64,000 nt of DNA, taken from a virus (lineage: Duplodnaviria > Caudoviricetes). The position numbers were made by a program, and so were the translations under genes. The stretch is from the IMG/VR virus record IMGVR_UViG_3300021426_000064, positions 120,342-184,341 of that record. One strand, 5' to 3'. Shown here piece after piece: positions 37,999-64,000 of the stretch (positions within the stretch are counted from its first letter, which is position 1; the number at the start of each line of letters is the position of its first letter). Below the pieces are notes generated by a model. The model saw only the letters and a program-made list of their open reading frames with translations. It did no database searches and had not been told where the DNA came from.

Positions 37999-39573
37999 AT
38001 GCTTTTAGATGCTAAGCAAATGGATCCTAAATTTGAGCTTTGGTATAAGGAGTTCATGGGAACTCGTTTTCCTGAAATCGTTGATTATGAATTGGTCTTT
38101 AACGATAATGGATATGTGGCGGAACAGGACGAAAAGGGCCGCTACATTGTAAATATGGATAAGGGCGTTAATCTATTGATGAGTAAACTCCCGCAAAAAG
38201 TTAACGCATTCTATAAGAACAAGGCTGCTGGAGAACTGAATATCCATTGGGATGCAGCTGTTCGCAATTATAACCCAAACAAGAGTGGCGAGCAGATTTT
38301 GCGCGCAGGCCTTGAAGTTGGGGTATATAATCCCAAGAACTTGACGCCGGAACTGGTTATGCTTATTGCTCGCAGCGAAAAGCTCTCCCTGCAGAACTGG
38401 TGGGAAAATGGCGCCAAAGTTAAGGAAGTAAGCTATCTTAATGGCACGAAGGCAGAAGACTTCGCTGATTTGGAAGATTACTATATCACCAATATGAACT
38501 ATGCTTTTGCTGGCGCAAGTGAAGTAGAAAGCCTTCCTGAACTGGCTACCGAGAAAGACAATTCTCTTACCAGCTTGGCTTACGCCTTCGATGGCTGCGC
38601 AAAGCTGAAGGCTGTTCCGTCTATCGCAACCGTTGGTGTAACCGATATTGAAGGCGCATTTCGTGGATGCGAATCCCTGACAGATCTGAGCGGTATGGAT
38701 TTGAGCAATAGTTATATGATTGCTTACGCATTCAGTGGCTGTAAAAATCTGAAGAAGCTCCCGAATCTGTCTCGTTTAGCTACGGCAACTCCGAGCAGCT
38801 TTGTCGACGCTTTCCGTGGTTGCTCCAGCCTTCCGGCAGTGTTCCCTTATACGATTAACGTATCCAGCGTAACAAACCGCAACAACTTTGGCGGCATGTT
38901 CGAGGGCAGTTCCGTCAAGGAAATCACTGTTCGTTACGACGGTGAAGCTATCCCTGAATACATTTGCCCGCTCTTTATGGGTAGTGCATTGGAAAAAATC
39001 ACCATCGTGAATGCTCAGGGTGAGGTTCGTGAAGTTCGTACCCAGGCAAATAATCCGTCTATGATTTCTTACTTAGCTGCAGGAGATAGCAAACTGATTG
39101 TTCCGGCAGGTGTTTCTTCCATGAAGGTTGCTCTGGTATCTGGCGTAAGCTATAGCTATAGCACGGTAGATATCAAACACATCGCTGTTAAAAATAATCC
39201 GTCCTCGATTAAGCGCGGCGAAGAAGAAGTAATCACTTCTAACAAGGCAGCTGGAGAACGCGGTCATTACTTTGACTACATGGGCAGCCAGGAACAGCAT
39301 GGTGGTTTCCCGGCCATGTTTGATGCTCAATACGAAGACTATAGCAACGGTCAGGTTTATTGCTGCGGCGTAGGCGGCGGAAAGCAGCTCACAAAGTATT
39401 GCCATGCTTGGGGCGCATTGGAAAACAGCTTCGTACAGGATACGGTAGCAGTTACTCCGGGTGAAGAACTGACGATTAGCGTCGGCAATGGTAGCGCTTC
39501 TGGCGACTGCACGTTCAATAAGAAACCGGGCAATGGCTTGTATAATGGCTACGTTTTAGTAGAGTTCCAGTAA
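37999..39573 (+). CDS. LRR (BspA-like) virion adhesin with Gly-rich C-terminal domain
   Basis: YAF.GC..L..LP repeats; VPAGVSSMKV...VTPGE.LTISVG. Confidence 0.7.
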   Translation: MLLDAKQMDPKFELWYKEFMGTRFPEIVDYELVFNDNGYVAEQDEKGRYIVNMDKGVNLLMSKLPQKVNAFYKNKAAGELNIHWDAAVRNYNPNKSGEQILRAGLEVGVYNPKNLTPELVMLIARSEKLSLQNWWENGAKVKEVSYLNGTKAEDFADLEDYYITNMNYAFAGASEVESLPELATEKDNSLTSLAYAFDGCAKLKAVPSIATVGVTDIEGAFRGCESLTDLSGMDLSNSYMIAYAFSGCKNLKKLPNLSRLATATPSSFVDAFRGCSSLPAVFPYTINVSSVTNRNNFGGMFEGSSVKEITVRYDGEAIPEYICPLFMGSALEKITIVNAQGEVREVRTQANNPSMISYLAAGDSKLIVPAGVSSMKVALVSGVSYSYSTVDIKHIAVKNNPSSIKRGEEEVITSNKAAGERGHYFDYMGSQEQHGGFPAMFDAQYEDYSNGQVYCCGVGGGKQLTKYCHAWGALENSFVQDTVAVTPGEELTISVGNGSASGDCTFNKKPGNGLYNGYVLVEFQ

Positions 39574-39658
39574 GCACTCGCAAAAATAGCACATTTTGCA
39601 TAAACATCCTCTTTATGGTATACTATTTCGGTATATTTACAGAGAGGATGTTTTTGTT

Positions 39659-39880
39659 TTGGCAAAGAAGATCAACTATGACGAAAAAATTGCGGTATTG
39701 GAGCAGAAAATCGAAAAGAAGGCTGCTCAAATTTCTGCCCTAAAAAACGAGCTCAAAAAGTTGGAAGCAGAAAGCCGCAAGGAAAAATATGAAAGCATTA
39801 TCGAATTTATCGATAACAAGAGGTTGCCGCTGGATCAAGTCATGACAGCTCTTGAAATGGTAGCAGAAGATAATAAATAA
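39659..39880 (+). CDS. small coiled-coil protein
   Basis: TTG start after GAGGA; own promoter TTGCAT-17-TATACT at 39596-39624. Confidence 0.65.
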   Translation: MAKKINYDEKIAVLEQKIEKKAAQISALKNELKKLEAESRKEKYESIIEFIDNKRLPLDQVMTALEMVAEDNK

Positions 39881-39951
39881 CTATATAGAAGAAGTCTGTG
39901 ATTGGTTTTATCCTTTCGCGGGCTTCTTTTTTATTCATATTGCCGCTTTTC

Positions 39952-39987
39952 TAACTGTGGGTAAACAGTAAGACAATAGCACAGTTA
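39952..39987 (+). repeat. 36-bp site, copy 1 (TAACTGTG-N20-CACAGTTA)
   Basis: 32/36 identical to the reverse complement of 50329-50364. Confidence 0.85.
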
Positions 39988-40101
39988 CGATTCGAAACCG
40001 TAAAGTCAAATGCTCAACACAAAATAGCGTATCCACTTCAAGGTAATGTAACCAACGAAGAGCGGAATAGGCCGCTCTGGTATTAAGAAAGGCGGTTTTT
40101 A

Positions 40102-40716
40102 ATGTCTCACGTAGTAAGTAAATATGAACTGCAGCATGTAACCGTGGATGAGCTCCGTCAGATGGCATCTGACTGTAGAGAAAGCATCTGGGCTCAAGCG
40201 CAGTCTGTGGGTAGAGAACCTAAGCTCTATCTCCACTGGACGGCGGGCAGGTTTGGTCAGTTTTGGGACGATTATCATGTGCAGATAGATGGAGATGGAG
40301 AAATCTATGTCTATGGCTCATTGGATGATGTTCTTAGCCATACCTGGCGTCGCAATACCGGCAGTATCGGCATCACTCTTCTGGGTGCTTATGGTGCTAA
40401 CACAGAAGATTTGGGCGATTATGCTCCGACTGAAGCACAGATTGAATCTATGGCTCGTGCCGTAGAAGCTTTAGCCGATGGCCTGTGGCTTACCATCTCG
40501 AAAGAGTATGTCGCTACTCATGGCGAGGCAGCAGACAATGAATGCAACGACTGGTGCCATGAAAAGTATGGTCCTAAATCTACTTGTGAACGTTGGGATT
40601 TGGAATACCTGCAGACAGATGAAAGCCCGGAATTTAATCCCTGGGCAGAAGATGGCAGCCGTGGTGGCGATGTAATCCGTGGTAAGGCTAACTGGTATCG
40701 CAATCAGCGTGGTTAA
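40102..40716 (+). CDS. N-acetylmuramoyl-L-alanine amidase (Amidase_2)
   Basis: LYLHWTAG, YH..IDGDG.I, SHTWRRNTGSIGI, PTEAQIES, THGE. Confidence 0.88.
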   Translation: MSHVVSKYELQHVTVDELRQMASDCRESIWAQAQSVGREPKLYLHWTAGRFGQFWDDYHVQIDGDGEIYVYGSLDDVLSHTWRRNTGSIGITLLGAYGANTEDLGDYAPTEAQIESMARAVEALADGLWLTISKEYVATHGEAADNECNDWCHEKYGPKSTCERWDLEYLQTDESPEFNPWAEDGSRGGDVIRGKANWYRNQRG

Positions 40717-40730
40717 GAGGGGTAAACAAT

Positions 40731-41333
40731 ATGTCAGTATTTGACCTTTCCCATTGGCAACCGGCAGACCGCATTGCGGAGCTGGTCGAAGGCGGAAATT
40801 GCGACGGCGTTATCCTGAAGCTTGGGGAACGCAATGTAAAAACCGGTGAAATTGAACTTGATCCGATGTTTATCACTCATGTAAACGAGGCTGTTCGATT
40901 CGGTTTGCCGTACGGTATTTATATCATGGGACGCGCCAATAATGAAAATGAAGCTTTGGAAGAAGCTCAATGGGTAAACGATCGTGTTGCGGAGCTGTTA
41001 AACGGACAAGAACCGTCGCTGGGCACATGGTTTGACCTGGAACGGCCAGAAGTAAAACGGGATGGCGTTTATGAAGATTATCGTTTTGCAATTCTCCACT
41101 TAAGTGATTGGTGGGGTGGCAGCCATAAAATCGGTATCTACGCATCCTACTTATACTTTGAGGGCTATCTGGATATCGGTAATATGGCGGCAAACAGCAT
41201 CCCCGTCTGGAATGCCCAGTATGGTTTTGTAGATTCCATGCGCCAAAACTATCCATATATCAAAACAGTCTTGTGGCAGTTTACGAAAAACGACGATTAT
41301 CAGGATGAGAATGTGTGGTACGGCTGGTATTAA
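40731..41333 (+). CDS. GH25 lysozyme
   Basis: DLSHWQ, VILKLGE, WFDLE, W.AQY, WQFT, D.N. Confidence 0.88.
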   Translation: MSVFDLSHWQPADRIAELVEGGNCDGVILKLGERNVKTGEIELDPMFITHVNEAVRFGLPYGIYIMGRANNENEALEEAQWVNDRVAELLNGQEPSLGTWFDLERPEVKRDGVYEDYRFAILHLSDWWGGSHKIGIYASYLYFEGYLDIGNMAANSIPVWNAQYGFVDSMRQNYPYIKTVLWQFTKNDDYQDENVWYGWY

Positions 41334-41403
41334 GCCGCCCGCAAAATAATAAAAGCGCCCCGAATATGTGGGCGCCTATTTTGTAAAGAAGGGAAAAACA
41401 AGT

Positions 41404-41961
41404 ATGGATTTTCTAAAGAAACACAGTAAGACCATTATGGCCATAATCATTGTAGTATTAATAGCTGCGCTCATAAGGTTAACTTTTTTTAAAAAAATAC
41501 CCGAGCCGGAAATAGTAACCGTACCCGAGGTATCCCAAAAAAATCTCCAACAGTATTTCCCTATGGAGACAAAAGCTACTGTGAAAGATATGACGCACCA
41601 AATCCAGCGTGCAAAAGAAACTCAGACTCCGCAATACCACTATTATACCGCGACACAGCAAGAGGCGGATAATAAGGCCAAAGAGTATGGTAATGTGCAG
41701 AAGGCAGACAAAATCGTAAAAGAGACACATAAAGTTGAAGTCAAGGATGATAACGGCAATAAGACCCATGTTATCGAAAATGACTACTATGCGATTAATC
41801 TCGAACGAAAACACCGCATTAAAACCGGCGCGGCAATGATTGACCATGACGCTTATGTTACGGTCGGATATCAAAACCGGGATGTGGAATACAAGGCCTA
41901 CTACGCACCTACAGCCAATAAGGCGGGAGTTGGTGTAGAGGTTACAATTGCAAAATGGTGA
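41404..41961 (+). CDS. membrane-anchored lysis-cassette protein (spanin-like?)
   Basis: N-terminal TM; C-terminal beta strands ending VGVEVTIAKW. Confidence 0.6.
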   Translation: MDFLKKHSKTIMAIIIVVLIAALIRLTFFKKIPEPEIVTVPEVSQKNLQQYFPMETKATVKDMTHQIQRAKETQTPQYHYYTATQQEADNKAKEYGNVQKADKIVKETHKVEVKDDNGNKTHVIENDYYAINLERKHRIKTGAAMIDHDAYVTVGYQNRDVEYKAYYAPTANKAGVGVEVTIAKW

Positions 41962-41973
41962 GGAAAGAATACT

Positions 41974-42537
41974 ATGCTTAGAAGAATACCAGGATTAAGT
42001 AAAATGTTTAACGGCGGGACGCGTACAGTGGGTGATATGCCAAACCTTTTCCAGTTCCCGGAGTATGCGCCAGGAGACGCATTAAAACAGTATAAAGGTG
42101 GCGGCTCGTATCTGTTTAACGCTAAACTGCGGGAAGGGATTCCTCTCGACGCACAGGACAAGGCACTACAAAGAGGCTTAGATCGTGACCTGAACGCTCT
42201 ACCAGACTATCAGGAGCCGACATTCAGGTCGTATGATTTCCTTGACCAGGAAAGTTTAAGCGAATTTTTAGAGCAGCATAAACCCGGCCATATGGTGCAG
42301 TATCCTGCTTACACATCATCCGCCAAAAGTCCTAATGCATACTACGCTCCGAACGGAACGGGCATGCAGGCACTGATGAAAATTAATGGCAAACATGGAA
42401 AAGACTTAGCACACGTAGAATCCGCCTCAAACAATGAGCAGGAAGTGCTGTTTGGACGAAAATCTATGTTCAGGGTTAATAATATTGGGTATTCCCCTGA
42501 GATGAAGACTTATTTTGGCGAAATGGACGAAATATAA
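41974..42537 (+). CDS. R-S-E clade ADP-ribosyltransferase (VIP2/C3-like)
   Basis: N..LR, TFRS (R), YTSSAK (STS-like), NEQEVLF (ExE). Confidence 0.85.
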   Translation: MLRRIPGLSKMFNGGTRTVGDMPNLFQFPEYAPGDALKQYKGGGSYLFNAKLREGIPLDAQDKALQRGLDRDLNALPDYQEPTFRSYDFLDQESLSEFLEQHKPGHMVQYPAYTSSAKSPNAYYAPNGTGMQALMKINGKHGKDLAHVESASNNEQEVLFGRKSMFRVNNIGYSPEMKTYFGEMDEI

Positions 42538-43523
42538 TCCGCCACCAAACTTTTATACTTGTCAAGAACAGAGCATGATATATGGCTAGGTATCTCGTAT
42601 TGTGCTCCAAATATATTACCCGCAATGGAGGCAACGGTATCGCTGTCTCCATTTATATTTGCGGCGCGATTTATACAAGTATATATCCTATCGCCTGAGA
42701 GTATATGATAGAGAGCGAGGCCCAAAGCATTTGGTCCAATCCAGGCATCTCCAAAAGCGCCATAAAAAGTACGAAACGCAGATGTGCTTTTAGTATCGGC
42801 ACACGTTATGGCGTTGTATACGTAGTTATACGTTTCATTGAGGGGAAGCGTCATAAGTTCTCCAATACGTTCAAGATAGGACTTGTAAAATTCCAGGGCT
42901 GATAACAGAGCCGTTTTTACATCCATGTTATCACGAAGCAAGAAAAAGATAATTAGCGAAAATACGCCCGCGCTGCGCCATGCTTCTTTATGACCATGCG
43001 TAATTGCCGCGCACCGCATGGATAACTCAAAAACATATTCCGGCGGCTCGTTAATCAGAAAGCCGAACGGGGCAGAACGCATAACAGTGCCGTTACCCAG
43101 GCTATCGTTGTATTGTTTATCCAGTGTTCCCATGCAACCGGAGCGCAGGGAGTCAATACAGGCATGGCCGGGAGCCCGCATAGTATATAAATCATCTATC
43201 ATCCATAGCTCACCTACGTGGGCTATTTTTTCGTCTATGGCTCCGGGGCCATACTGCGTATTAAACCAACGGAGATATGATTCGTACATAATTTGCACAC
43301 GCTCATCCATCGATTTACCCTGACTGAGTGCTAACCCCTCAAGCGTAAACAATGTCATCTGGGTATCATCTGTGATGGCATCTCCTGGATTTAGCTCCTG
43401 CTTACCCTGCTCGCCATATTGCGATCTGATTTCATCCATAGTCATCATTTCTAGGTCAGAACCAAAAGCATCTCCATAGGCCCCGTATAAAATACATCGA
43501 TACATTCTATCCTGTTTAGTCAT
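42510..43523 (-). CDS. ADP-ribosylglycohydrolase (DraG/ARH family)
   Basis: GAYGDAFG, TDDTQM, GNGTVMR, ITHGH, GDSDT..SIAG. Confidence 0.92.
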   Translation of the reverse strand: MTKQDRMYRCILYGAYGDAFGSDLEMMTMDEIRSQYGEQGKQELNPGDAITDDTQMTLFTLEGLALSQGKSMDERVQIMYESYLRWFNTQYGPGAIDEKIAHVGELWMIDDLYTMRAPGHACIDSLRSGCMGTLDKQYNDSLGNGTVMRSAPFGFLINEPPEYVFELSMRCAAITHGHKEAWRSAGVFSLIIFFLLRDNMDVKTALLSALEFYKSYLERIGELMTLPLNETYNYVYNAITCADTKSTSAFRTFYGAFGDAWIGPNALGLALYHILSGDRIYTCINRAANINGDSDTVASIAGNIFGAQYEIPSHISCSVLDKYKSLVADYISSISPK

Positions 43524-43618
43524 AGCGACACCTCTTAAAAAATGATAAATTATGATATAATATTATGGCTACCGAACGGTGGCGGTTAATCAATGGCCCT
43601 GAGAAGGGGCGCCGGACG

Positions 43619-43687
43619 ATGAGTAAATATGTTTTTCATCTGATACTGATTTTAGTTCTCGCGCTTGTAAGCACCATAAAGGCATAA
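43619..43687 (+). CDS. type I toxin-like 22-aa hydrophobic peptide MSKYVFHLILILVLALVSTIKA
   Basis: RBS GAGAAGGGG; extended -10 TG.TATAAT at 43553-43561; predicted mRNA 5' end (GGCTACC..GGTGGCGGTTAATC) pairs with its 3' end (GACTGACCGTCACCGGTAGCC). Confidence 0.7.
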   Translation: MSKYVFHLILILVLALVSTIKA

Positions 43688-43780
43688 GAAAAGCCGCCTC
43701 TGGACTCGCAATCTTGTAGGCGGCGATTCTAATCGTTGTTCACATCTGTGGGACTGACCGTCACCGGTAGCCTTTTGGTA
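43686..43780 (-). ncRNA. antisense antitoxin RNA candidate
   Basis: Minus-strand promoter TTGATT-17-TATAAT (43814-43786); terminator GCCGCCT...AGGCGGC followed by TTTTCTT. Confidence 0.65.
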
Positions 43781-43885
43781 TGCATATTATACAACTTCAA
43801 GCTGATAAAATCAATACTACCGGTTGTCTCATCTGCTGGCTTTTGCAAGTCGCTCTTTCTTGGTGCCGGGATATATAAGCTACCC

Positions 43886-44128
43886 CTAAAAAAGTACTTC
43901 GTGTCTGTCGCACTGGCGGGCGAATGGATCTTCTATGTCGTATTGCTGCAACACCTCCAGTCGACACTCGCTCTTGTACCGCAAATCCTGATTTTCTAGC
44001 GACAAACGCTCTTTGTCTTGCCGTTCCCTGATAGTCAGGTAATAAACAGTGTTGACGGCAAGCGTACGAATGTCCTCCGTTGGTAGTTGTGTAATTTTCT
44101 CCATAATTCTTTCCTTAGAATCTTGCAC
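43886..44128 (-). CDS. hypothetical protein
   Basis: GTG start after AGGAGGT. Confidence 0.65.
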   Translation of the reverse strand: MQDSKERIMEKITQLPTEDIRTLAVNTVYYLTIRERQDKERLSLENQDLRYKSECRLEVLQQYDIEDPFARQCDRHEVLF

Positions 44129-44401
44129 AAAAATACCTCCTTTTTGTGCGCATAGCGTGGGTTTTCGCTATCGCGTAATCGAATTTAGCAACTTTGGCGA
44201 AGGCTAAATTTTCACATTGGTGTGAAATGAGATTACACATATATAGTAGCACAATGGCGTCAGAAAAACAATGTGTAATTTGAACCTTGCGATTAAGAAG
44301 CTAATGTGATAAAATGAAAGCAGATGCAAACAATGATGTGATATGCAACAACTTACATAAGACATTGTAATGTCTTTCATAGGAGGTGTCAAGAGAAAAT
44401 T

Positions 44402-44815
44402 ATGGATTTCGGAGAAAAGTTGAAAAAGCTGCGAAAAAAGAAGGGGTGGACACAGAGAGAAGTCGCAGATATGCTAAGTGTTTCCCCCAGGACTTATGCT
44501 TCGTACGAATTGGAAGGGCGCGAGCCGAAAGATATAGATAAATACTATGTCTTGGCAGAAATATTTGGAGTTTCAAAGGACTACTTTATAGAATCATCAA
44601 AAGGGATGGCAAAAATAAATTTAGGTGACTTATTTCCGGGGGTCGGCGCAACTGAAGTAACGGACGAGGTTAGGGCGAAAATGCTTACCGATGAACTTGT
44701 AACGCTGTTTATGAAGGGTGAGATGTCATCAAGGTTCAGAGATGACATCGCTGAACGGATCATGACTGCATATTGGGACGCAAAGAGAGGAGACGATATA
44801 CGTGTTAAAGGATGA
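44402..44815 (+). CDS. XRE-family HTH transcriptional regulator
   Basis: FGEKLKKLRKKKGWTQREVAD.L.VS..TY..YE..GREP. Confidence 0.9.
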   Translation: MDFGEKLKKLRKKKGWTQREVADMLSVSPRTYASYELEGREPKDIDKYYVLAEIFGVSKDYFIESSKGMAKINLGDLFPGVGATEVTDEVRAKMLTDELVTLFMKGEMSSRFRDDIAERIMTAYWDAKRGDDIRVKG

Positions 44816-45275
44816 CTTTGATAAACTCTTGCAAGATTTTTGTATTACATATTGGAAGAAACTATACGAATCCGTAAGAGAAAGTGCCAACGAACTAAAA
44901 ATAAATCGGGATATTACATTAGAAAAGCTTGATACGAACGGAATGGGATTGTTACGTAAGATGTCTGTCGGTCAACTTACTGAACATGAAAGGGTTATAT
45001 TAAAGGAGTTCCAAGAAGAAGCGTCAGAATATTTTGATGGAAAAAATACAGTAAATATATGGATTTTAATCAAAAGGACGAAAGGGAAGAATCGGTTGCA
45101 ATTCAAGACATTCGTTGGTATGGGGACGGAAGCAATTGAAAAGGCCCACGATTGGCTAGACGGAAAGACAGAAGAAAGGACAAGCGGTGACGGTGCCACC
45201 TATGTTAAGTCCTTAGATACAAAAGACGTTGTATATATAAAGCCGCTGCATGGGATTATTGCGCCATTTAAATAA
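44802..45275 (+). CDS. hypothetical protein
   Basis: 157 aa, overlaps the HTH gene end. Confidence 0.6.
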   Translation: MLKDDFDKLLQDFCITYWKKLYESVRESANELKINRDITLEKLDTNGMGLLRKMSVGQLTEHERVILKEFQEEASEYFDGKNTVNIWILIKRTKGKNRLQFKTFVGMGTEAIEKAHDWLDGKTEERTSGDGATYVKSLDTKDVVYIKPLHGIIAPFK

Positions 45276-45289
45276 AACAATAAGGAAAG

Positions 45290-46426
45290 ATGATGGAGAT
45301 GCTAAAACTAAAACAACAATGGCGTAGCTGCCTTGCGTCAGTGCTAATAGGAATATCGTGCATTATGCTTCCGGCGGTATCAGAAGCAGAAGTTGTTACC
45401 GTAGAAGCAGATGGCCAGTATATGCTTGGCGATGACGACAATATTTCTACCGCTAAAGAGCGTGCAAGGCAAGACGCGCTAAGAAGCGCCGCGGAAAAAG
45501 CCGGCGTTTTTGTCAAGTCGTATACAGAAACGCACAACATGGTTTTAACCAAAGACGATGTAATCGTTGTTTCCTCGAACTTGCTCAATGTGCAGCACGA
45601 ATCCATAACCAATGAAGTCGTCGGTGGTTTGGGATTCAAAGTCATTTGTCATGTGGTGGCAACTTTTGATACGAATAATATCGATATGACGCAAACGCTG
45701 AACACGCAGACAATGGCCATCAAGGAGAGGGATGACGCCATTGAGCGGCTAAACCGAGAAAACGCCCAACTGAAGGCGCAAATGTCTGCTCAGAACGCAG
45801 CCAAAATAAAAGAAAATGAAACTCTCTTCAAGATAAACCTGTATGAACGCGAGTTAATAAAAGAAGCGAATAAGAATAATATACACGAAGCCGGAAAATG
45901 GGCGGATAAACTCCGTGTTTTAGACCCGGACAATGATGTATATAGGTGTTTTACATACACTTTGATGGGCAAACAGGAGTGTGTAACAGAGTGTGACAAG
46001 TACCTGGCAACACACCCAGATGATTTCGTGGCAGAGATTTGTCGAATAAACGCGCTATGTAATATAAAAAATAACTTTCCAATGAACGATGCAGACAGAA
46101 AAGCCGTAAACCGTCTTGTTGAGCGAGCGAAGAAGATACTGCCGTTGGACGTTTACTACTCTTCGGTATCGCCAACTGTACTTAATAGAAGTAGTAGCGG
46201 CGAGCTGGGCCTCGTAGAAGGACCGAACGGCATTGTTATAAACGAACAGATATCTTTCCTGTTTGAAAACGTCTATGGCGTATACGTAAGAGACTTAACC
46301 GGTGTAGGAAGAAACAAAAAGAAGAGCGAAGTAATAATTACATACGCTAAGCATCCTGATGATGTTGACGGAAAAAAGTGTGACAAGGTGCTTGATAAAT
46401 ACGAGAAAATATATTCTTATCATTAA
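45290..46426 (+). CDS. exported protein with coiled-coil/TPR-like region
   Basis: Signal peptide (VSEA), EADGQY..GD...AKERA..DA.R.A.EKAGV.V.S. Confidence 0.65.
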   Translation: MMEMLKLKQQWRSCLASVLIGISCIMLPAVSEAEVVTVEADGQYMLGDDDNISTAKERARQDALRSAAEKAGVFVKSYTETHNMVLTKDDVIVVSSNLLNVQHESITNEVVGGLGFKVICHVVATFDTNNIDMTQTLNTQTMAIKERDDAIERLNRENAQLKAQMSAQNAAKIKENETLFKINLYERELIKEANKNNIHEAGKWADKLRVLDPDNDVYRCFTYTLMGKQECVTECDKYLATHPDDFVAEICRINALCNIKNNFPMNDADRKAVNRLVERAKKILPLDVYYSSVSPTVLNRSSSGELGLVEGPNGIVINEQISFLFENVYGVYVRDLTGVGRNKKKSEVIITYAKHPDDVDGKKCDKVLDKYEKIYSYH

Positions 46427-46623
46427 CCTGGCATGTAGTTAAGAACAAAACCTTACGGCTAATATGCGGCAGTCATTAAAAGCGATTGACATTATCAACC
46501 ATAATTAATCATTTCTGTAAAGATGGGAAGAGAAAAATGCCGAAAGGAAGAGAGGCGGCATTTTTCTCTCTAATCTAAAGAGGCTGATAATTAAGAAAAA
46601 GGAGAATAGTATAAAAAGAGATA

Positions 46624-46687
46624 ATATTGTAAATATATCCAACTGTGGTTAACCACAATTACACACAGTTAGATATATTTACAATAT
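46624..46687. repeat. 24-bp inverted repeat upstream of the recombinase (candidate recombination/binding site)
   Basis: ATATTGTAAATATATCCAACTGTG-N16-CACAGTTAGATATATTTACAATAT (1 mismatch); nested palindrome TGTGGTTAACCACA. Confidence 0.85.
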
Positions 46688-46740
46688 GAAAACCATATAC
46701 GGTTTTCAAGATGCGTACACCCTTCAAAATACAGAATATT

Positions 46741-46769
46741 TTGCTATTGCCTACTACTTGTAGTATAAT
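46741..46769 (+). promoter_or_regulatory. sigma70 promoter of the recombinase
   Basis: TTGCTA-17-TATAAT. Confidence 0.65.
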
Positions 46770-46791
46770 ATTTTAAAGGTGGTGATTTTGT

Positions 46792-47778
46792 ATGGCCAGC
46801 ATAGCTCCAGTACAAACTGAATTGGGATTTAAAACTCCCATGGATGAGAACCTGGTAACTCCAGATTACTTTGTAGCTTATTACCTGCAGTTCTTGCCGC
46901 GTTATATTGCTAACGGGCGCCCTACTGATGATACGCTGCGGGATTACAAAATTCATATAGACAGCTTTTTAAGATGGTGCGATGAACATAACCGGCATCC
47001 GCTATCCATTCATGATTACCAAATGCGTATGTATATGGAATGGATGGTAAACCATGAATACACCGATAACACCATCGCTATTAAACTGTCGGCAATTCGA
47101 GGGTTTTATCAGGCGGCGCTAAAAATCGGCCTCATAGAATTAAACCCGTGCGAAGATTTAAAAGCTGATAGAAAACTTGTCTGGGATGAAAAATTCCGCT
47201 TTTATTCTACGGAGCAAATAGAGATAATGAATGACTATATCAAAAATACCGCAATAAATGATTTTATTCGCTATAGAGATATGGCCATATTGTATCTGAT
47301 GGGTGTTGAAGGTTTGCGCAACGTAGAAGTTCACCGCCTTTGCGATGAAGATATTAACTGGGAATACGGTTCTATACTTATCAGAGGTAAGGAGCATAGC
47401 GGAATTATTTACCCATCTGAAGAAACTCTGGAGGTTCTCAGACGCTATATAGAAGCGCGGCCAGAAAATAAAAAAGAGGGGGCTTTCACCCCCACTATCA
47501 CATCTGACCATCGTCATAAATACAGAAGAATCTCTAGAAATGGTATACGCAATATCATGAATCGGATACTCGAAGGCTGCCAATTAAAACACCCAGGATA
47601 CTCCTGTCATATTCTGCGACATAGCTGTGGTACAAACCTTTATAATGAGACGAAAGACTTGCGGCTTGTGCAAGAACAACTTCGTCATAATGATCCGCAG
47701 ATGACGGCCAGGTATAGCCACGTTCATGAGCGTATGACTAGAAGAGCGACTTCTCGGTTGGCGCCGAAAATTGACTAA
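46792..47778 (+). CDS. XerC/D-like tyrosine recombinase
   Basis: SAM-like N-terminus, GLRNVE (R), RGK (K), HILRHS, LRH...MTARY (H, Y). Confidence 0.92.
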   Translation: MASIAPVQTELGFKTPMDENLVTPDYFVAYYLQFLPRYIANGRPTDDTLRDYKIHIDSFLRWCDEHNRHPLSIHDYQMRMYMEWMVNHEYTDNTIAIKLSAIRGFYQAALKIGLIELNPCEDLKADRKLVWDEKFRFYSTEQIEIMNDYIKNTAINDFIRYRDMAILYLMGVEGLRNVEVHRLCDEDINWEYGSILIRGKEHSGIIYPSEETLEVLRRYIEARPENKKEGAFTPTITSDHRHKYRRISRNGIRNIMNRILEGCQLKHPGYSCHILRHSCGTNLYNETKDLRLVQEQLRHNDPQMTARYSHVHERMTRRATSRLAPKID

Positions 47779-47782
47779 ACGT

Positions 47783-49504
47783 TTATTCTATACGGCCCTT
47801 AATTTGTGCATCCAATAGGTCAAGATTATAATACGATGTATATAAAACCTTGCCGCTTTTCGGCGTATTCGCCGAAGCCTTCATCGTGCAGGCGTGAGAA
47901 ACGTTATTAGTGTTGATAACGAGAAGGTCAACATCGTTAAGCTTTTGTGTATCGAAGCTCTTACCGTTTCCTATGTCCTTAAACTTTGGATGACGGGCGA
48001 TTACTTTTGCACGCCAGCTATCTGTCCCGCCGGCCACAGCAATCTTGAGATTAATGCTGGCAAAAGTGTCTTCTTCTTCTGCTGCTACAGGCTTCTTCTC
48101 AGTAACAACAACAGACTCCTCTTCAATATCCTGCACAGACAGTGCCTCAAGCTCTTTTGTCTTTTTGCGCAGTTCCTCGCGGAGCTCGGAGATTTTATCC
48201 GACAGGGCAATCTTTTCACTGATCGCGTCCTGATATTTACGAACATAATCTTCTTTCTGCTTGGAAAGCTCGTCAAACTTACTCCTCAGATTACTGTAAT
48301 CTGTAGAGAGCTTAACCAGTTCTTTATTCTGTTTCCGGTTTGCACCGTTTACTGAGCGTTTCTGATTAGCTACGCTTTTAGATAAAACATCTTGTGACTT
48401 TAAAAGCTCTTCAATCTTATTAGAAAGAGTATTATTTTTACGAGCCAGGTCTGTTTTTTCCGCTTTTAATACGGAAAATTCATTATTTCGAATGGCAATC
48501 TCTCGTTCAAGATTTGTTACTTTGTCCGAGAGGCTCGTTATCTTACTATTGTTCTTTGTAATAACATCCTTAAGCTTCTGGATCTTGTTCAGATTCCGTT
48601 CAGCCTCGTACCGGTAATACCATATTGGCTTGAGCTGCGGATGAATATGCGCAGCAACGTATTCCGCGGCTATACTATATGTAAAATCATCTTTTTCCCA
48701 TTCGCTAACAAAAGGATCTGAAGGAACAGACATTACGAGCTCTTTTTTTATGAGCTCAAGGGTTTTGTTGATGTCATCAGTGTTGATAATACCATCCATA
48801 ATATCGGTGGCACATTTGCAGACTTCTTCGTAAAAATCATTTTCGTTTTCTAACGAATAAATACATTCCGTAGCGACTCTCATTTCAATTGCGCGAGTTA
48901 AAGAATCTATATGTACATGCCTTCGATTGTAAAAACCGATTATATCGTAAACCAAAGCAAGACAAAATAAATCCTTTTCTGCAGAAATGAAATACTGATC
49001 ATGATCTTGTAACAATGTGGAATATTTTTCCTCAATTTCTTCCAAGCCGTTATAAGGAGGAAGCTCGCTAATATGCTTATTAACGATGTGTTCAAATTGA
49101 CGCTCTTCTTTTGTCCCGTCAATATCAAACATTAATTGCCATATCTGATAAACAAATGCTAATCGTATACACTTTAAAACATCGGGAAGTTGACAACTGT
49201 CATTTTGATCGAGGAGCCCAATAGCAAGAAGTGTATAATATGCACCTTGAATGCGGCAATGTAAAAAGAAGTTTGGCGTACGCTCAAAATACTCTTTCTT
49301 AATGGTATCCTCGTTTGCGTTTAAAAGCTCGAGAAGTTCGTCTGTTTTTCCGCTTTTTTCTAGCTCTATGGCCTGTTGTAAAATTTTAAAAGAACGCCCC
49401 TTGCTAATGTCTGGTATGAGCTTATCTTTTAGTCTGTTTGAATTGTTCTGATAAATATCTGTTAATATTGGTGCAGATCTAATGCTATATTCCATGTTAA
49501 CCAC
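47783..49504 (-). CDS. coiled-coil protein with C-terminal DUF2325-like domain
   Basis: Long coiled coil; KIAVAGG...DLLVINTNNVSH. Confidence 0.7.
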   Translation of the reverse strand: MVNMEYSIRSAPILTDIYQNNSNRLKDKLIPDISKGRSFKILQQAIELEKSGKTDELLELLNANEDTIKKEYFERTPNFFLHCRIQGAYYTLLAIGLLDQNDSCQLPDVLKCIRLAFVYQIWQLMFDIDGTKEERQFEHIVNKHISELPPYNGLEEIEEKYSTLLQDHDQYFISAEKDLFCLALVYDIIGFYNRRHVHIDSLTRAIEMRVATECIYSLENENDFYEEVCKCATDIMDGIINTDDINKTLELIKKELVMSVPSDPFVSEWEKDDFTYSIAAEYVAAHIHPQLKPIWYYRYEAERNLNKIQKLKDVITKNNSKITSLSDKVTNLEREIAIRNNEFSVLKAEKTDLARKNNTLSNKIEELLKSQDVLSKSVANQKRSVNGANRKQNKELVKLSTDYSNLRSKFDELSKQKEDYVRKYQDAISEKIALSDKISELREELRKKTKELEALSVQDIEEESVVVTEKKPVAAEEEDTFASINLKIAVAGGTDSWRAKVIARHPKFKDIGNGKSFDTQKLNDVDLLVINTNNVSHACTMKASANTPKSGKVLYTSYYNLDLLDAQIKGRIE

Positions 49505-49727
49505 CTCTAACCTATACTCAACTTAAATTATACATAAAATAAGAATAAAAAATCAAGCAAAATATTCAAAATCAAAAATAACCGCTCTGGGAAACCCGTA
49601 GAGCGGTTATAGACATTTAGGCATATAATTATATACAAAAAGTTTTTCGTGGGTGTTGTGGGCGAATCTGAGGGGCAGATTTTTTCGCCCCTCATCCAAA
49701 ATATCGAAAAACGGAAAGTGACCGGGG

Positions 49728-50192
49728 TTATGCAGCACTCTTCCCTGTTTGCAATGACACTTTGTCCTGGCCATAATCAATATAGCCAATCTTTGGTCCA
49801 AGCTGATCCTGCCATGCCCTTATGAATGAACGTGTCGCAACGAAGCTGGAGCCGATTCTTGCCGATGCCTGTCCAACAGTCAGCTTCTCACCCATAATAA
49901 GATCGTAGAGAATTTTCCACTTCTGCTCGCGAGATTTCTGTTCTGCTGCCAGTTTAGATTCGTTGAAATCCGCTTTCGTGTCTACGAGACGATATACCTT
50001 CTTAACATTATCTACGACCCATCCTTTTGATTTGAATGTGCGCTGGATTTCTCCGCTTTTTAGCGGTTCGCCATCATACGTAGCAATTTCGCCGGCACGA
50101 CGTTTAAATTTCTTCGGGTTCTTTACTTCAGGATGGCGCTCACACCAGTCCATTTCAGCCTTCTTAGTCCAAAAGTATGTTGTTGCTGCCAA
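49728..50192 (-). CDS. hypothetical protein (possible C-terminal HTH)
   Basis: TTG start after GGAGG; promoter TTGATT-17-TAAAAT at 50308-50280. Confidence 0.65.
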   Translation of the reverse strand: MAATTYFWTKKAEMDWCERHPEVKNPKKFKRRAGEIATYDGEPLKSGEIQRTFKSKGWVVDNVKKVYRLVDTKADFNESKLAAEQKSREQKWKILYDLIMGEKLTVGQASARIGSSFVATRSFIRAWQDQLGPKIGYIDYGQDKVSLQTGKSAA

Positions 50193-50328
50193 TATTAAAT
50201 TCCTCCAATCATAAACAATTGTATGTGTATAATAAACTACTTACGAATAACAATGGGGTCTGCCCCACTTCTTAAATATATTTTACTACTTACTTATCTA
50301 AAAATCAAGTATGTAGCGGAGTTTTCTT

Positions 50329-50364
50329 TAACTGTGTCATTGTATCACTGTTTACCCACAGTTA
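50329..50364 (-). repeat. 36-bp site, copy 2 (inverted relative to copy 1)
   Basis: TAACTGTGGGTAAACAGTGATACAATGACACAGTTA on the - strand. Confidence 0.85.
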
Positions 50365-50414
50365 ACCTATGAAAAATAAAGCCGCCCACGAGGGGGCGAC
50401 CACTGAAGATATTT

Positions 50415-53400
50415 TTATTGCATGCAAAGCTGCATGACCTTATTGCTTGCTTCATTTGCCTTTTGCTGATATTCTTTGTACTGGGCATACTCTTGCGGCC
50501 TATTCTGCGCCGCCCACTGAATAACCCATGTTTTGCCAGATGCGTTAGGATCGTTCTGAATTGCAGACTCCCAACCGGCGAATAGCACATCTGCTTTTTT
50601 TGTGTAATCATCCATGATTTTTTCGTACTGTTTTATCTGAGCGCGCTTTTCTTTTTCAGCTGCTTCGTTGAAAACAGGTTCAGGGTTAACACCCTTATTG
50701 TTTGTCTTTTCTATCTGCTTACCTACAGATGTCTCTTTTGATACATTTATCGAGTTTAACAGCTTCCATACAGTCTTGGGGTCTACAAACGAGCCGTTTT
50801 TATCTTGTACGCGCAAAATAAAATTATCACTGCACGCCGCGCAGATTTCCCCCTTGCTTATGTTTTGCTTGTTAGCATCTTTGCTGAGTTTATCTTCACT
50901 AAGCCCTGCGAAGATGTATGTGTAGCCAGAATGTCTGCTTGTCATCTTAATGTACTTGCCAATAGCCTCATCAGATAATACTCCGGCTCCATCACAATCT
51001 TCTGGCGCATGAACACTAATTTCCGCACTACACTTGAATACCAACGCATTAGATACGACTCCTACGCCAGAACCCGCATTCGCAACGCCAAAATCTTGAA
51101 TCCAGTATACGTTATTCAAATCTTTTGTTGGTATTGGGAAATCCATACCTTCTTCTTGATTTGCAAGCTGCGACAATCCAGTATTTGCAGCATCGATAAT
51201 CTGGTAGGCCTGAACGACAGCTGGGAAAAATTCCGGATCGCTACTTGCCTCTTCGAGGGCTTTTCTCCATTCCCAGTTATACATGCGGGTACTGTTATTG
51301 TTATTGTTCCCATTGCTACTGTTACTACTGTCGTCATTGTTCATGGGTGCGCTCATAAGTTCAGCCAGCCCATCGCTCCATTTTTTATATGCCGTAACAG
51401 GCGCAATGGAATTCCCATTAAAGGTATATTGCTCTGAAAGCTTTTTTAGCTCTTTAACGCCGGCCTCTATCTGTCCTTCTATTGCGCCGCTATTCGTACC
51501 GAATAATCCTTGGGCAGGGTCACCATTACTGATAACCGCAATAACTGCCATCGCGAGAAGTGGGTCGATTTTATTTTCGCCAGCAATACGTTGAAGCGTT
51601 TGCTCATATCCATTGAGCTTCAGGTTTTTAACAGCTTCTTCCGCCCTTGCCTTACCATTGGATAAACCTGCAGATATGGATTCTTTTGCTTTTGGCCACC
51701 AAATCTTCATCTCTTGCTTCTTTTTATCACCAGTAGTATTTGAAGAACTGTTATCACCAGTTCCGCTATTGTCTTTTGGATCGTATTTCCCAGCAAGAAC
51801 ATCATCCATGAACTGCTTGTGCCCATCAATAGATGATTTGTAATCACCTGGATTAATAGAAACTGTAGGCGTAAGACCGGATGAACCTGGTCCATTTGCC
51901 AGCTGATAAGAAGCAAGTTTCTCTGGGGACTTATCGTCAGAATTAATATCCTGCCGCCAGTTAATCTGCGGCTTCTGTTGCTCTACCGGAGTGAGCTTCC
52001 AGCCCATCTTAACACCATCATCCCACTGATCTTTGAATGGGCGTTCGTTCTGGTCTCTCGTGCCGGTGGTCTTATAATTGAGCTGGTAGTCTATCTTCTT
52101 GTCGTGCATCTGCTCGATGCGCAGGAAGTTTATGTAGTCTTCCATGTTCATCATGCCAGCCTGAATATCGTCTTGGATATTTGCCAGGTTAGCACCAACT
52201 TCATTAAGAATATCGAAAGTTTGTCCTATGATAGGTTCGTAGCGCGAACAAGATAGGCACTGATCAATCTGCATGACCTGACCATCTTCCAAAAGATTAT
52301 CCTTCAGGCATCTAATCGCACAGTACTTTTGTCGATGGTCCTGTCCTCCGTAATACTGACAATTGATGTGCATTCGTTTACCCATGCCGAATACATATCT
52401 CATCATGGTAGCCAATACATTTTCCAATTTTACAATACGCTTTTCGGTAAAGTCAGAAAGTGTCAATATGGCTGAAGCAAGCTCCTTGGTTTCCATATGG
52501 TCTCTTGTATATGGCAGCCGATACTGTTTAACACGAGGAGCGTGGTTCTCCAGTTCCTCTATTTTAAGATCGACAGGGTACGGATCGTTATTGTTTAATG
52601 GCTTTCCAGCACTTGGTACTTTTACCTCGCTGATAGAATTTTGCGGATCAAATGGACGCTGCGCAAGTTTTTGAGCCTGATCGGTTGTGAAAGCATTGCC
52701 ATCTATTCCCATTAGATCTTGCATGGTTTTGCTCGTCATTATGCCGTAGTCGCCAACTTGGTCCATATTCTCCATACCGTTAACAGCTGTAGTTTCTACG
52801 GCCGTATTTGGGATATTCCCTTGAACATACACCAGGTCGGGATATACCGGTTCGCTGTATGTTTTTCCCTTGGGGTTAATTTCAACCCAGGTGTGATGGT
52901 CAGTTATGTTGTTATTCGCCGGCCCAAGTGCTTTGTTCATTGCTCCGCCCGCAGGATTTTTGCCGCCTTCAGCCTGAGACTGTGCATTGAAGTTTGGCTT
53001 GATGCCATCGTGGGAGGTTGTTGGTATCCACCAATCGCATACGCCGCCATCTGCAAGTACGGTTTCCAAATCCCAATGGTAATCATCACCATTTTTATTG
53101 CGTGAGCCCCCCTGATTTGGGTCATTAATTATAAGCCCCTGGTTATCCAGCTTTGCATAAACAATATAATGGCCGCCGCCAGTAAAGAGTCCATCACCAT
53201 GGGCTGCAATAACGGGAAATCCTGCTTTTAATGCTTCTCTTACCGGCCCAGGATCATTTACATATTTAAATTCTACGCCGTATGACGGGCCTCTGTCCTG
53301 AAATGCGGTATGGTCTGTGCCCTGTCCTAACACTCTATGGCCAGACTGAACAAAATCATCTGCAACCATGTCCGGCGTTACATTTTTCCCATACCATGCA

Positions 53401-53600
53401 CATACCATAGCAAAGGAGGTTGGGCCGCAGCCGGAAGTACAAACTGTAGACCCATCACTGCCATAAGGATGGTCCGCCCAGCGTTCATCCCACTGATGGT
53501 ACAGGGGAACTCCCGACGAATTTCCCTGTGAACTAGGGGCATTGGTGTTTTGCTTATTGTCTTCTGGCTTGGTAGATGTATTATTATTCGTATCCGGCAA
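50415..53600 (-). CDS. multidomain virion-associated hydrolase: C39-like peptidase with degenerate SLT-like and M23-like domains
   Basis: YHQWDERW, SGCGPTSFAMV, GHYIV, INDP; IDPLLAMAVIAVIS (SLT-like); M23-like fold ending VDP. Confidence 0.7.
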   Translation of the reverse strand: MPDTNNNTSTKPEDNKQNTNAPSSQGNSSGVPLYHQWDERWADHPYGSDGSTVCTSGCGPTSFAMVCAWYGKNVTPDMVADDFVQSGHRVLGQGTDHTAFQDRGPSYGVEFKYVNDPGPVREALKAGFPVIAAHGDGLFTGGGHYIVYAKLDNQGLIINDPNQGGSRNKNGDDYHWDLETVLADGGVCDWWIPTTSHDGIKPNFNAQSQAEGGKNPAGGAMNKALGPANNNITDHHTWVEINPKGKTYSEPVYPDLVYVQGNIPNTAVETTAVNGMENMDQVGDYGIMTSKTMQDLMGIDGNAFTTDQAQKLAQRPFDPQNSISEVKVPSAGKPLNNNDPYPVDLKIEELENHAPRVKQYRLPYTRDHMETKELASAILTLSDFTEKRIVKLENVLATMMRYVFGMGKRMHINCQYYGGQDHRQKYCAIRCLKDNLLEDGQVMQIDQCLSCSRYEPIIGQTFDILNEVGANLANIQDDIQAGMMNMEDYINFLRIEQMHDKKIDYQLNYKTTGTRDQNERPFKDQWDDGVKMGWKLTPVEQQKPQINWRQDINSDDKSPEKLASYQLANGPGSSGLTPTVSINPGDYKSSIDGHKQFMDDVLAGKYDPKDNSGTGDNSSSNTTGDKKKQEMKIWWPKAKESISAGLSNGKARAEEAVKNLKLNGYEQTLQRIAGENKIDPLLAMAVIAVISNGDPAQGLFGTNSGAIEGQIEAGVKELKKLSEQYTFNGNSIAPVTAYKKWSDGLAELMSAPMNNDDSSNSSNGNNNNNSTRMYNWEWRKALEEASSDPEFFPAVVQAYQIIDAANTGLSQLANQEEGMDFPIPTKDLNNVYWIQDFGVANAGSGVGVVSNALVFKCSAEISVHAPEDCDGAGVLSDEAIGKYIKMTSRHSGYTYIFAGLSEDKLSKDANKQNISKGEICAACSDNFILRVQDKNGSFVDPKTVWKLLNSINVSKETSVGKQIEKTNNKGVNPEPVFNEAAEKEKRAQIKQYEKIMDDYTKKADVLFAGWESAIQNDPNASGKTWVIQWAAQNRPQEYAQYKEYQQKANEASNKVMQLCMQ

Positions 53601-54021: not shown

Positions 54022-55227
54022 TTAGGATGCCTTAAAATTGTAGACGGGTTTAATAATCTCTAAAATATCCACGGTATCCCTTACATCTTCCAGGATGTTA
54101 TCGATACTTTTATAAGCCATAGGAGCTTCATCCAATGTGTCCTCATTTACAGATGTCGTATAGATGCCGTTATTCTCCATGGTCTTTTTATACTCGTCCA
54201 TACTGAGTTTTTCGCGGGCGGCCTTACGCGACATTATACGGCCAGCGCCATGCGGTGCAGAATAGTTCCACTCCTCAACACCTTTGCCTATGCCGATAAT
54301 GCAGCCATCCCGCATATTCATCGGGATAAGGATCTTTTCTCCCTTGCGGGCCGAAATTGCGCCTTTACGGAGTATCATCTCATCCACGTTGATATAGTTG
54401 TGGATTGTGGAGAACTGCTCCTCTACAGTATACCTGCAATGCTTCACAATGATTTCTGCCATCAGCTTGCGGCTCTCGTCAGCAAACTCCTGACAGATTA
54501 CAATATCGTGCAAATAGTCATTCATATACTCGCCGTAAAGATAGGCTAAGTCGTCAGGAATATCGGACTTATGTTTCTGCCAGGTGAGCTCCTTTAGTGC
54601 ACCCTGAATCTCCTGACGCCGCCCTTGCTCTTTATACGTGCGAATGAGTTCGTCGCGGGCCTTGATGTATTCTTCCTTCCCTTGATGCAGTTCAATGGCA
54701 AGATTCTGATAGTATTCTGCCACCTGTTTGCCTAAATTACGGCTGCCGGAATGGATAATAAGATAGTATTCCCCAGAGGAACTTTTGTCCAGCTCTACGA
54801 AATGATTGCCTCCTCCCAGTGTACCTAGACTTCTTTCCAGACGTTTAGTGTCCCGCAGATTACGGAAGCACTTGAGTCGGGTCAGGTCAAATCGCTTCTG
54901 CCTGCCGTCCCAGACATTAAATCCGGACGGAATGTAATGACAGGCTTCGTCCAGTGTTGGGAAGTCAATGATTTTATCCTTGAGCTTGCTGGTAAGCATT
55001 CCACAGCCGATGTCTACTCCAACTAAATTAGCACAAACCTTGTCCGTAATGGTCATGGTCGTTCCAATTGTGCAGCCAGCCCCGGCATGAACATCCGGCA
55101 TGATGCGTATTTTGCTGCCGCGAGTAAGCTCGTAATCACACATGCGTTTTATCTGTTCTCTTGCCTCATCCTCAATAATGGATGCGTAAGAGACAGCTTC
55201 GCCAATTTTACCCTTAATAAGTTCCAA
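54022..55227 (-). CDS. rtcB: RtcB family RNA ligase
   Basis: MPDVH.G, VGVDIGCG, GTLGGGNHF, HSGSR, HNY, HGAGR, DEAP.AYK. Confidence 0.95.
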   Translation of the reverse strand: MELIKGKIGEAVSYASIIEDEAREQIKRMCDYELTRGSKIRIMPDVHAGAGCTIGTTMTITDKVCANLVGVDIGCGMLTSKLKDKIIDFPTLDEACHYIPSGFNVWDGRQKRFDLTRLKCFRNLRDTKRLERSLGTLGGGNHFVELDKSSSGEYYLIIHSGSRNLGKQVAEYYQNLAIELHQGKEEYIKARDELIRTYKEQGRRQEIQGALKELTWQKHKSDIPDDLAYLYGEYMNDYLHDIVICQEFADESRKLMAEIIVKHCRYTVEEQFSTIHNYINVDEMILRKGAISARKGEKILIPMNMRDGCIIGIGKGVEEWNYSAPHGAGRIMSRKAAREKLSMDEYKKTMENNGIYTTSVNEDTLDEAPMAYKSIDNILEDVRDTVDILEIIKPVYNFKAS

Positions 55228-63981: not shown

Positions 63982-64000
63982 AGATCGGAAGAGCGTCGTG
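63982..64000 (+). other. Illumina TruSeq adapter contamination
   Basis: AGATCGGAAGAGCGTCGTG exact adapter prefix at the window end. Confidence 0.97.

Follow-up and report, generated by a model that had tools for sequence, protein, structure and literature searches.

A pair of inverted, conserved sites brackets the recombinase module of a large phage

We analyzed a 64,000-nucleotide stretch of phage DNA (the window; Duplodnaviria, Caudoviricetes), which forms the final 64 kb (positions 120,342 to 184,341) of the 184,341-bp IMG/VR record IMGVR_UViG_3300021426_000064, and observed two inverted 36-bp sites, S1 and S2, that bracket a 10.3-kb segment carrying an Xer-type tyrosine recombinase gene with its likely core site, S4. 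The sites, their conservation among related phages, their kinship to S4, and their position at the likely terminus were each directly observed, and the pair is real, conserved, and tied to an Xer-type module at the likely replication terminus of the phage. Our preferred reading, which we hold tentatively, is that S1 and S2 may well act as boundaries or regulatory elements, one at each edge of a terminus module, where the recombinase would bind them. The features on which this reading draws are as follows.

39952-39987, plus strand: S1, a putative variant recombinase site in which a conserved outer block of 15 bp (TAACTGTGGGTAAAC) is followed by 8 variable bp and AAT-NN-CACAGTTA
50329-50364, minus strand: S2, the inverted partner of S1, 32/36 identical to it and with the same first 18 bp
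46641-46670, plus strand: S4, a core of 11-8-11 layout (AACTGTGGTTA-accacaat-TACACACAGTT), likely a dif- or lox-like target
46792-47778, plus strand: gene for the Xer-type tyrosine recombinase (328 amino acids [aa]), with Pfam Phage_integrase and SAM-like N-terminal domains

An earlier, sequence-only reading of the window had reported S1 and S2 at these positions as 32/36 identical sites with 8-bp terminal inverted repeats, and our analysis confirmed both the coordinates and the repeats, which are perfect in S1 and in S2. When the window was searched for the 8-N20-8 pattern with up to two mismatches, S1 and S2 were the sole matches; shuffled windows gave a mean of 0.01 matches, and none of 100 shuffles contained two. 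The full site, allowing up to three mismatches, again matched S1 and S2 alone in the whole 184,341-bp record. A candidate third site at record position 88058 (16/18 against the left half) lies inside a long open reading frame (ORF) and has no counterpart in a related 206-kb record, and we attribute it to chance. The genome-wide copy search that the sequence-only reading had proposed did not reveal many randomly oriented copies, as exactly two copies were present in each of two large records.

S1 and S2 are identical over their leading 18 bp, which comprise the conserved arm and adjacent bases, and all four mismatches lie beyond them. The sequence-only reading had described the mismatches as central and as arguing somewhat against simple inversion, but they are not central to the part that is likely functional. 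The outer arm of both sites, AACTGTGGGTA, differs from the left arm of S4 at a single base (10/11 identical), and S1 and S2 retain this one S4 arm together with four further bases. The second arm lies 4 to 5 bp further outward than in S4. The 7- to 8-bp terminal repeats are 20 to 21 bp apart, and 12 to 13 bp separate the arms if these are counted as 11 bp. The central region of Xer sites spans 6 to 11 bp (PMC5357621). S1 and S2 do not have the canonical crossover-core layout of two arms around an overlap region of 6 to 8 bp, at most 11 bp, and with the second arm displaced in this manner, we do not regard them as standard crossover sites.

Two other explanations for the symmetry of the sites were rejected. 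An RNA hairpin was considered because, in two variants of S2, a C-to-G change in one arm is mirrored by a G-to-C change in the other, but the related site in Selenomonas ruminantium HD4 mixes both states and S4-type arms of other clades use either base, and we therefore read this position as tolerant rather than paired. DNA hairpin energies of S1 and S2 were unremarkable. The sites are also not transposon ends, considering that the flanks contain no target-site duplication and that essential lysis genes lie inside the segment.

Both sites are conserved in three phage lineages

We compared three phage lineages: A, comprising the window, L022/L023, and L124; B, comprising L025 and L035, with a 79%-identical recombinase; and C, comprising L140, L139, and L131-134. 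Seven sites from these lineages gave the consensus TAASTGTGGGTAAAC, N7-9, AAT-NN-CACASTWA. In lineages B and C, counterparts of S1 (L025 3139-3175 and L140 1415-1450, respectively) are found ahead of the endolysin genes. The place of S2 is likewise kept in all three lineages, with the terminator of an incoming gene on one side and the promoter of a gene for a protein of 15x aa (154 aa in the window) on the other. The flanks of the sites have diverged between lineages and the site blocks have been retained, and the order and orientation of the sites relative to the endolysin and 15x-aa genes are invariant in A, B, and C. Exactly two copies of the 11-mer TGTGGGTAAAC, inverted and 12.6 kb apart, are present in the lineage B record of 206 kb.

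Finding these relatives required searching by alignment. Megablast of window positions 39000-51500 against phage records returned no match, and a search of IMG/VR with the recombinase alone found no relatives. An exact 16-mer scan of IMG/VR gave about the number of matches expected by chance, and the lone contig with two copies contained an unrelated coding repeat.

S4 is the likely core site of the Xer-type recombinase

The best NCBIfam matches of the recombinase were XerD and XerC, both under their cutoffs, and the XerS cutoff was likewise not reached. All six catalytic residues (R-K-H-R-H-Y) are in register with those of Escherichia coli XerD (1a0p), in the motifs GLR, GK, H-x-x-R, LRH, and Y. 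S4, whose 11-8-11 core sits within a palindrome of about 64 bp (46624-46687), has arms with 9/11 dyad symmetry and lies 122 bp upstream of the recombinase start codon. The sequence-only reading had noted a related core upstream of a XerD-like gene, and this core proved to be real, at 46640-46672.

S4 arms also occur in S. ruminantium chromosomes, 97 to 154 bp upstream of genes for 52 to 66%-identical recombinases, with other spacers; across the phage and S. ruminantium, the spacers between S4-type arms are accacaat, acgacaat, acgttaat, and atggaaat. In more distant clades, an equivalent palindrome of 11-8-11 layout lies 120 to 300 bp upstream of the gene, and its arms are specific to the clade (TACTGTGTTGT and TAGTGTGGCTA are examples). 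Because 11-8-11 palindromes precede homologous genes in many Selenomonadaceae loci, we consider this type of motif tied to the recombinase. The conserved arms, variable center, gene linkage, and position at a skew switch are features of xerS/difSL-type systems (PMC5357621), and S4 is thus likely to be the core site of the recombinase. A search of the S4 palindrome against Rfam returned only a spurious microRNA match.

In the likely source sample, the host version of S4 is present at high depth on a contig with loose ends at 46657, and S. ruminantium fits as the host. Integration of the phage into the host core appears unlikely, as the spacers of phage and host S4 differ (accacaat versus atggaaat).

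Two further palindromes were observed near recombinase genes. One, ACTTCCGATAA-N7-TTATCGGAAGT, resembles Firmicute dif and accompanies the recombinase gene at close range in three settings, namely lineage B, a phage lineage with 51% identity, and S. ruminantium HD4 (L025 6858-6886, L037 11433-11461, L040 9471-9499, and L127 at about 1087). It is not in the record analyzed here, and its half-sites have no flanking pair in related records. The other, of the TTAAATCGAATTGTA type, is found about 390 bp upstream of both HD4 recombinase paralogues (L040 at about 9840 and L042 9608-9648) and may be a further conserved binding site.

The recombinase module lies at the likely terminus and resembles modules of host replicons

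Cumulative guanine-cytosine (GC) skew in the window reached its maximum at 46 to 48 kb. A check of this kind had been suggested earlier, and both the maximum and the strand switch indeed fall between S1 and S2. Across the whole record, a single stretch of positive GC skew extends from 10 to 167 kb, with negative skew to its left and right. We found an identical recombinase on a 334,475-bp ENA contig at 166.9 to 167.9 kb, which is its midpoint. This pattern likely reflects a circular replicon of about 334 kb that is replicated bidirectionally with its terminus at the recombinase, although transcription direction could yield the same pattern, since phage GC skew also tracks transcription. The left end of the ENA contig is almost the same as that of the record, and the right end of the record (window 63982-64000) is an artifact consisting of Illumina adapter sequence (AGATCGGAAGAGC...).

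Homologs of the recombinase are encoded on Selenomonadaceae chromosomes and plasmids, often several per genome. Of the 33 host loci with full flanks, 19 had positive skew upstream of the gene and negative skew downstream, and none showed the reverse; gene orientation in host loci flips at the same point as the skew. GC skew switches at the recombinase in the phage lineages as well. The Selenomonadaceae recombinase with an 11-8-11 palindrome 100 to 300 bp upstream (host loci L043-L121), often placed precisely at a skew switch, looks like an undescribed single-recombinase dimer-resolution module, and we found no relevant publication when the literature was searched for Selenomonas in combination with dif and Xer.

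Host loci carry a single core, without further arm copies within 10 kb. The one exception is S. ruminantium HD4, in which a site of the S1/S2 class lies 72 bp downstream of a gene for a 70%-identical recombinase. Because host chromosomes manage with one core, the S1/S2 pair is not needed for basic dimer resolution, and because host loci other than HD4 carry a lone core, the flanking pair appears to be essentially a phage addition.

S1 and S2 each precede an inward-reading transcription unit

Each site is placed where an incoming operon has ended and ahead of the first transcription unit that reads into the segment. The sequence-only reading had placed the sites just past the ends of inward-pointing genes and had listed lysis genes, ADP-ribosyltransferase and ADP-ribosylglycohydrolase genes, an XRE-family regulator gene, and the recombinase gene within the segment; these placements and genes were all found. 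S1 starts 71 bp past the stop codon of a plus-strand gene (39596-39880), with which a long rightward operon closes, and S2 follows the terminator of the gene at 50415-53600. Genes run rightward left of the segment and mostly so inside it up to the recombinase, and leftward from about 47.8 kb. S1 and S2 have identical orientations relative to the transcription unit that each precedes, and their inverted orientation alone is therefore weak evidence. The features at the edges and inside the segment include the following.

50380-50401, minus strand: intrinsic terminator that ends the incoming gene 50415-53600, 15 bp before S2
50280-50308, minus strand: promoter-like TTGATT-17-TAAAAT, 20 nucleotides downstream of S2
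40102-41333, plus strand: first genes after S1, encoding an Amidase_2 endolysin and a GH25 lysozyme
44402-44815, plus strand: XRE-family regulator gene, inside the bracketed segment
49728-50192, minus strand: gene for a 154-aa protein, first gene downstream of S2; the protein is basic and lineage-specific, with a possible C-terminal helix-turn-helix

Lineages B and C likewise retain the -35 and -10 hexamers, at a spacing of 19 to 20 nucleotides from S2. Downstream of S1, a conserved GGTAAT is followed by a hairpin in the 5' untranslated region with compensatory changes and then by the endolysin gene; in lineage B, Amidase_3 occupies the slot behind S1. The hairpin (40058-40078) precedes the endolysin gene's ribosome-binding site and reads GAGCGG...CCGCTC in the window versus GAGGGA...TCCCTC in lineage B (L025, about 3263-3283), with pairing kept; it may be a conserved 5' untranslated element.

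The other plus-strand genes of the segment encode a membrane protein, the ADP-ribosyltransferase, the ADP-ribosylglycohydrolase, and a lipoprotein-like product, and those on the opposite strand encode a 573-aa coiled-coil protein and the basic 154-aa protein. Homologs of the 154-aa protein formed four clusters, all confined to these phages. A language-model search gave weak helix-turn-helix leads, and a structure model showed a three-helix C terminus at low confidence (predicted local distance difference test [pLDDT] score of 55), too poor for fold search or classification. A search for ParB_N gave one match, which was below threshold.

Several parts of the region vary among strains. The membrane protein, ADP-ribosyltransferase, and ADP-ribosylglycohydrolase genes lie in a strain-variable stretch (window 40672-43705), at both ends of which the contig graphs of the source sample branch; parts of it are skipped or replaced in other runs, and lineage B has neither the ADP-ribosyltransferase nor the ADP-ribosylglycohydrolase gene. 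At window 47766-47783, between the recombinase gene and the convergent gene for the 573-aa protein, related strains have an extra 472 bp (a 133-aa ORF in L022). In L022 (17266-19575), a 99%-related strain, a LAGLIDADG-type ORF interrupts the RtcB gene and leaves parts of 262 aa and 154 aa, with an IS605/TnpB element adjoining it, and the window encodes an intact 401-aa RtcB (54022-55227). A gene for the anaerobic ribonucleotide reductase NrdD, which is not in the window, lies between the coiled-coil and 15x-aa genes in L025 (12830-15040) and L131 (3080-5201), and in lineage C it is broken by an HNH/NUMOD4 ORF.

S1 and S2 as proposed recombinase-bound boundary or regulatory sites

In our preferred reading, S1 and S2 would be DNA sites under selection that originated from the site targeted by the Xer-type recombinase of the phage itself. 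The recombinase and S4 would constitute a gene-plus-site module of the xerS/difSL kind in the middle of a replicon of about 334 kb, at its likely terminus, and this module would resolve dimers of a circular, plasmid-like form of the phage. With the second arm shifted, the recombinase probably binds S1 and S2 without normal crossover, and the two sites may mark and insulate the two edges of a terminus module devoted to lysis, lysogeny control, and recombination.

Single-recombinase Xer modules resolve replicon dimers, usually in an FtsK-dependent manner. Examples are xerS/difSL and xerH/difH (PMC5357621; PMC2731167). Like them, the phage locus links one Xer-type gene to a palindromic target with inverted arms of about 11 bp at a GC-skew switch, and S4 and the recombinase share with the xerS/difSL type the catalytic set, the linked target, the layout of arms and center, and the position at the skew switch. 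Unlike them, it encodes a protein below the XerC, XerD, and XerS cutoffs, uses an unrelated arm sequence, and resides on a phage of about 334 kb, and the two extra inverted variant sites several kilobases away are not reported for those modules.

For S1 and S2 themselves, the proposed role may be comparable to that of XerD at XDS sites or of YopR at SPBRE repeats. According to summaries in later papers, XerD binds XDS sites in the Bacillus subtilis terminus without recombining them (PMC11840125; PMC12322038, summarizing Karaboja 2021). As those accounts describe them, XDS sites are dif-like terminus sequences distinct from dif that are thought to be bound without recombination and to act on SMC unloading, which is the point of likeness. 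In contrast, the recombinase here is no XerD orthologue, only two sites are present, and they are in a phage. In phage SPbeta, YopR binds SPBRE repeats that are followed by a promoter (bioRxiv 10.1101/2022.10.21.513154). The phage analyzed here similarly combines a protein of the tyrosine recombinase fold, whose binding is predicted, with a repeated element followed by a promoter in a large genome. An element just before a promoter was seen for S2 in three lineages, and S1 shows GGTAAT at variable distance. YopR, however, is a master repressor without catalytic residues, whereas all six are retained in the phage recombinase, whose family is associated with host termini.

Several observations weigh against this interpretation. 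The protein that binds S1 and S2 could be another one, as binding by the recombinase is predicted. The recombinase is catalytically intact and therefore differs from YopR, in which catalysis is lost. The distance from S1 to its putative -10 element differs by 5 bp between lineages, indicating rigid promoter coupling for S2 only. Host chromosomes make do with a lone core, which means that basic dimer resolution does not depend on the pair. Lastly, positions 17 and 18 covary within lineages (S1/S2: GT/GT in A, CA/CC in B, and AC/AC in C); such covariation is predicted for a shared crossover region and is not explained by a pure binding site.

The covariation bears on a different possibility, that strand exchange between S1 and S2 beside the conserved arm inverts the 10.3-kb module rarely or conditionally, which we consider unlikely though not negligible. 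Inversion could break the coupling of the lysis genes to the late operon upstream or, if it took place during replication, could redirect one fork, similarly to the Flp/FRT double-rolling-circle model. Tyrosine recombinases invert DNA in the Rci/sfx shufflon and at Flp/FRT of the 2-micron plasmid, and both orientations are readily seen in these systems. The phage shares with them inverted sites near a recombinase, with an intact enzyme encoded between the sites and 18 identical leading bases, and one-armed sfx sites support inversion in the shufflon. Moreover, each S2 is nearer to the S1 of its own genome (29 to 32 matches) than to S2 of other lineages (27 to 28 matches). The signal at positions 17 and 18 is nevertheless small, resting on three lineages and two positions, and the arms are 20 to 21 bp apart instead of flanking a 6- to 8-bp spacer. 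Unlike in the known inversion systems, the flipped form was not seen, and the segment has no alternative gene ends. All assemblies of lineages A, B, and C are collinear, and the contigs of four runs, including the likely source, contained no strand-changing joints at S1 or S2, with the caveat that contigs may hide minority forms. Recombinant-junction 26-mers were not in IMG/VR, a result that is uninformative, as few relatives are present there. Of the invertible segment put forward by the sequence-only reading, the geometry and a small covariation signal thus remain, but no lineage or run contig contained an inverted form. We do not think that S1 and S2 form a frequently flipping switch.

It is improbable, in our estimate, that S1 and S2 are operators of another phage regulator, for which the 154-aa and XRE proteins are candidates. 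Such a regulator would govern the lysis operon in addition to its own, with the likeness to the core being incidental or due to shared site ancestry. Consistent with this idea, the spacing between S2 and the promoter of the 154-aa gene is fixed in three lineages, the encoded protein is basic, phage-restricted, and possibly ends in a helix-turn-helix, and S1 and S2 are oriented alike relative to the transcription units that follow them. However, the HD4 locus has a site of the same class beside its recombinase gene and no homolog of the 154-aa protein, every lineage retains the 10/11 match between the arm and that of S4, and confidence in the structure model of the protein is low.

We give similarly little weight to a broader proposal in which the phage would have a chromosome-like terminus of its own, built from a host-derived Xer/dif-type module and a phage-specific polar pair of recombinase sites that act on DNA machines and not on expression. 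Such a pair could operate as a fork trap, as a barrier to SMC or transcription, or through inversion at the time of replication, which would convert the converging forks to a double rolling circle that feeds packaging.

Still less probable, we believe, is that S1 and S2 are polar fork barriers in the strict sense, at which an asymmetrically bound protein would admit forks to the 10.3-kb zone and block their exit, with termination beside the dif-like core. Inverted Ter sites with Tus (E. coli and plasmid R6K) or RTP (B. subtilis) bracket the terminus in this manner, and the phage likewise has an asymmetric, inverted site pair around its terminus, where fork arrest is only predicted. The pair brackets the cumulative skew maximum and strand switch at the midpoint of the 334-kb contig, both forks would meet the same face of the first site, the sites are strongly asymmetric owing to the 15-bp outer block, and two records have one pair per genome. 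This support is positional, though, and gene orientation gives the same symmetry, just as phage GC skew also follows transcription direction. The sites have no sequence likeness to Ter and number one per side, no match to the Tus or RTP family (PF05472 and PF02334) was found in the 184-kb record, which is about half of the replicon, and host replicons with the same recombinase module have no flanking sites. The position and orientation noted for polar terminus sites in the sequence-only reading therefore stand, but a Tus or RTP homolog in the record does not accompany them.

S1 and S2 fit poorly as accessory sites for dimer resolution: in classical systems such sites are no more than about 200 bp away from an Xer core, and S1 and S2 are 6.7 and 3.7 kb from S4; known Xer accessory sequences adjoin the core (PMC5357621). 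Overall, the link to the recombinase that had been drawn from the sequence is borne out by the match of the outer arm to the recombinase's linked core and by the position of the pair around the skew and strand switch, whereas none of the three functions offered with it was shown.

Implications for termination in large phages

To our knowledge, replication termination and the handling of replicon dimers are almost unstudied in huge phages and phage-plasmids, and we know of no terminus-delimiting sites beyond those of E. coli and B. subtilis relatives. A rumen Selenomonas phage of about 334 kb appears to carry a terminus module copied from host replicons, with two conserved, inverted, one-armed versions of the site at its edges. 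The phage thereby offers a testable case of the reuse of a recombinase target, in which S1 and S2 may set a boundary, take part in regulation, halt forks, or pair with each other for inversion.

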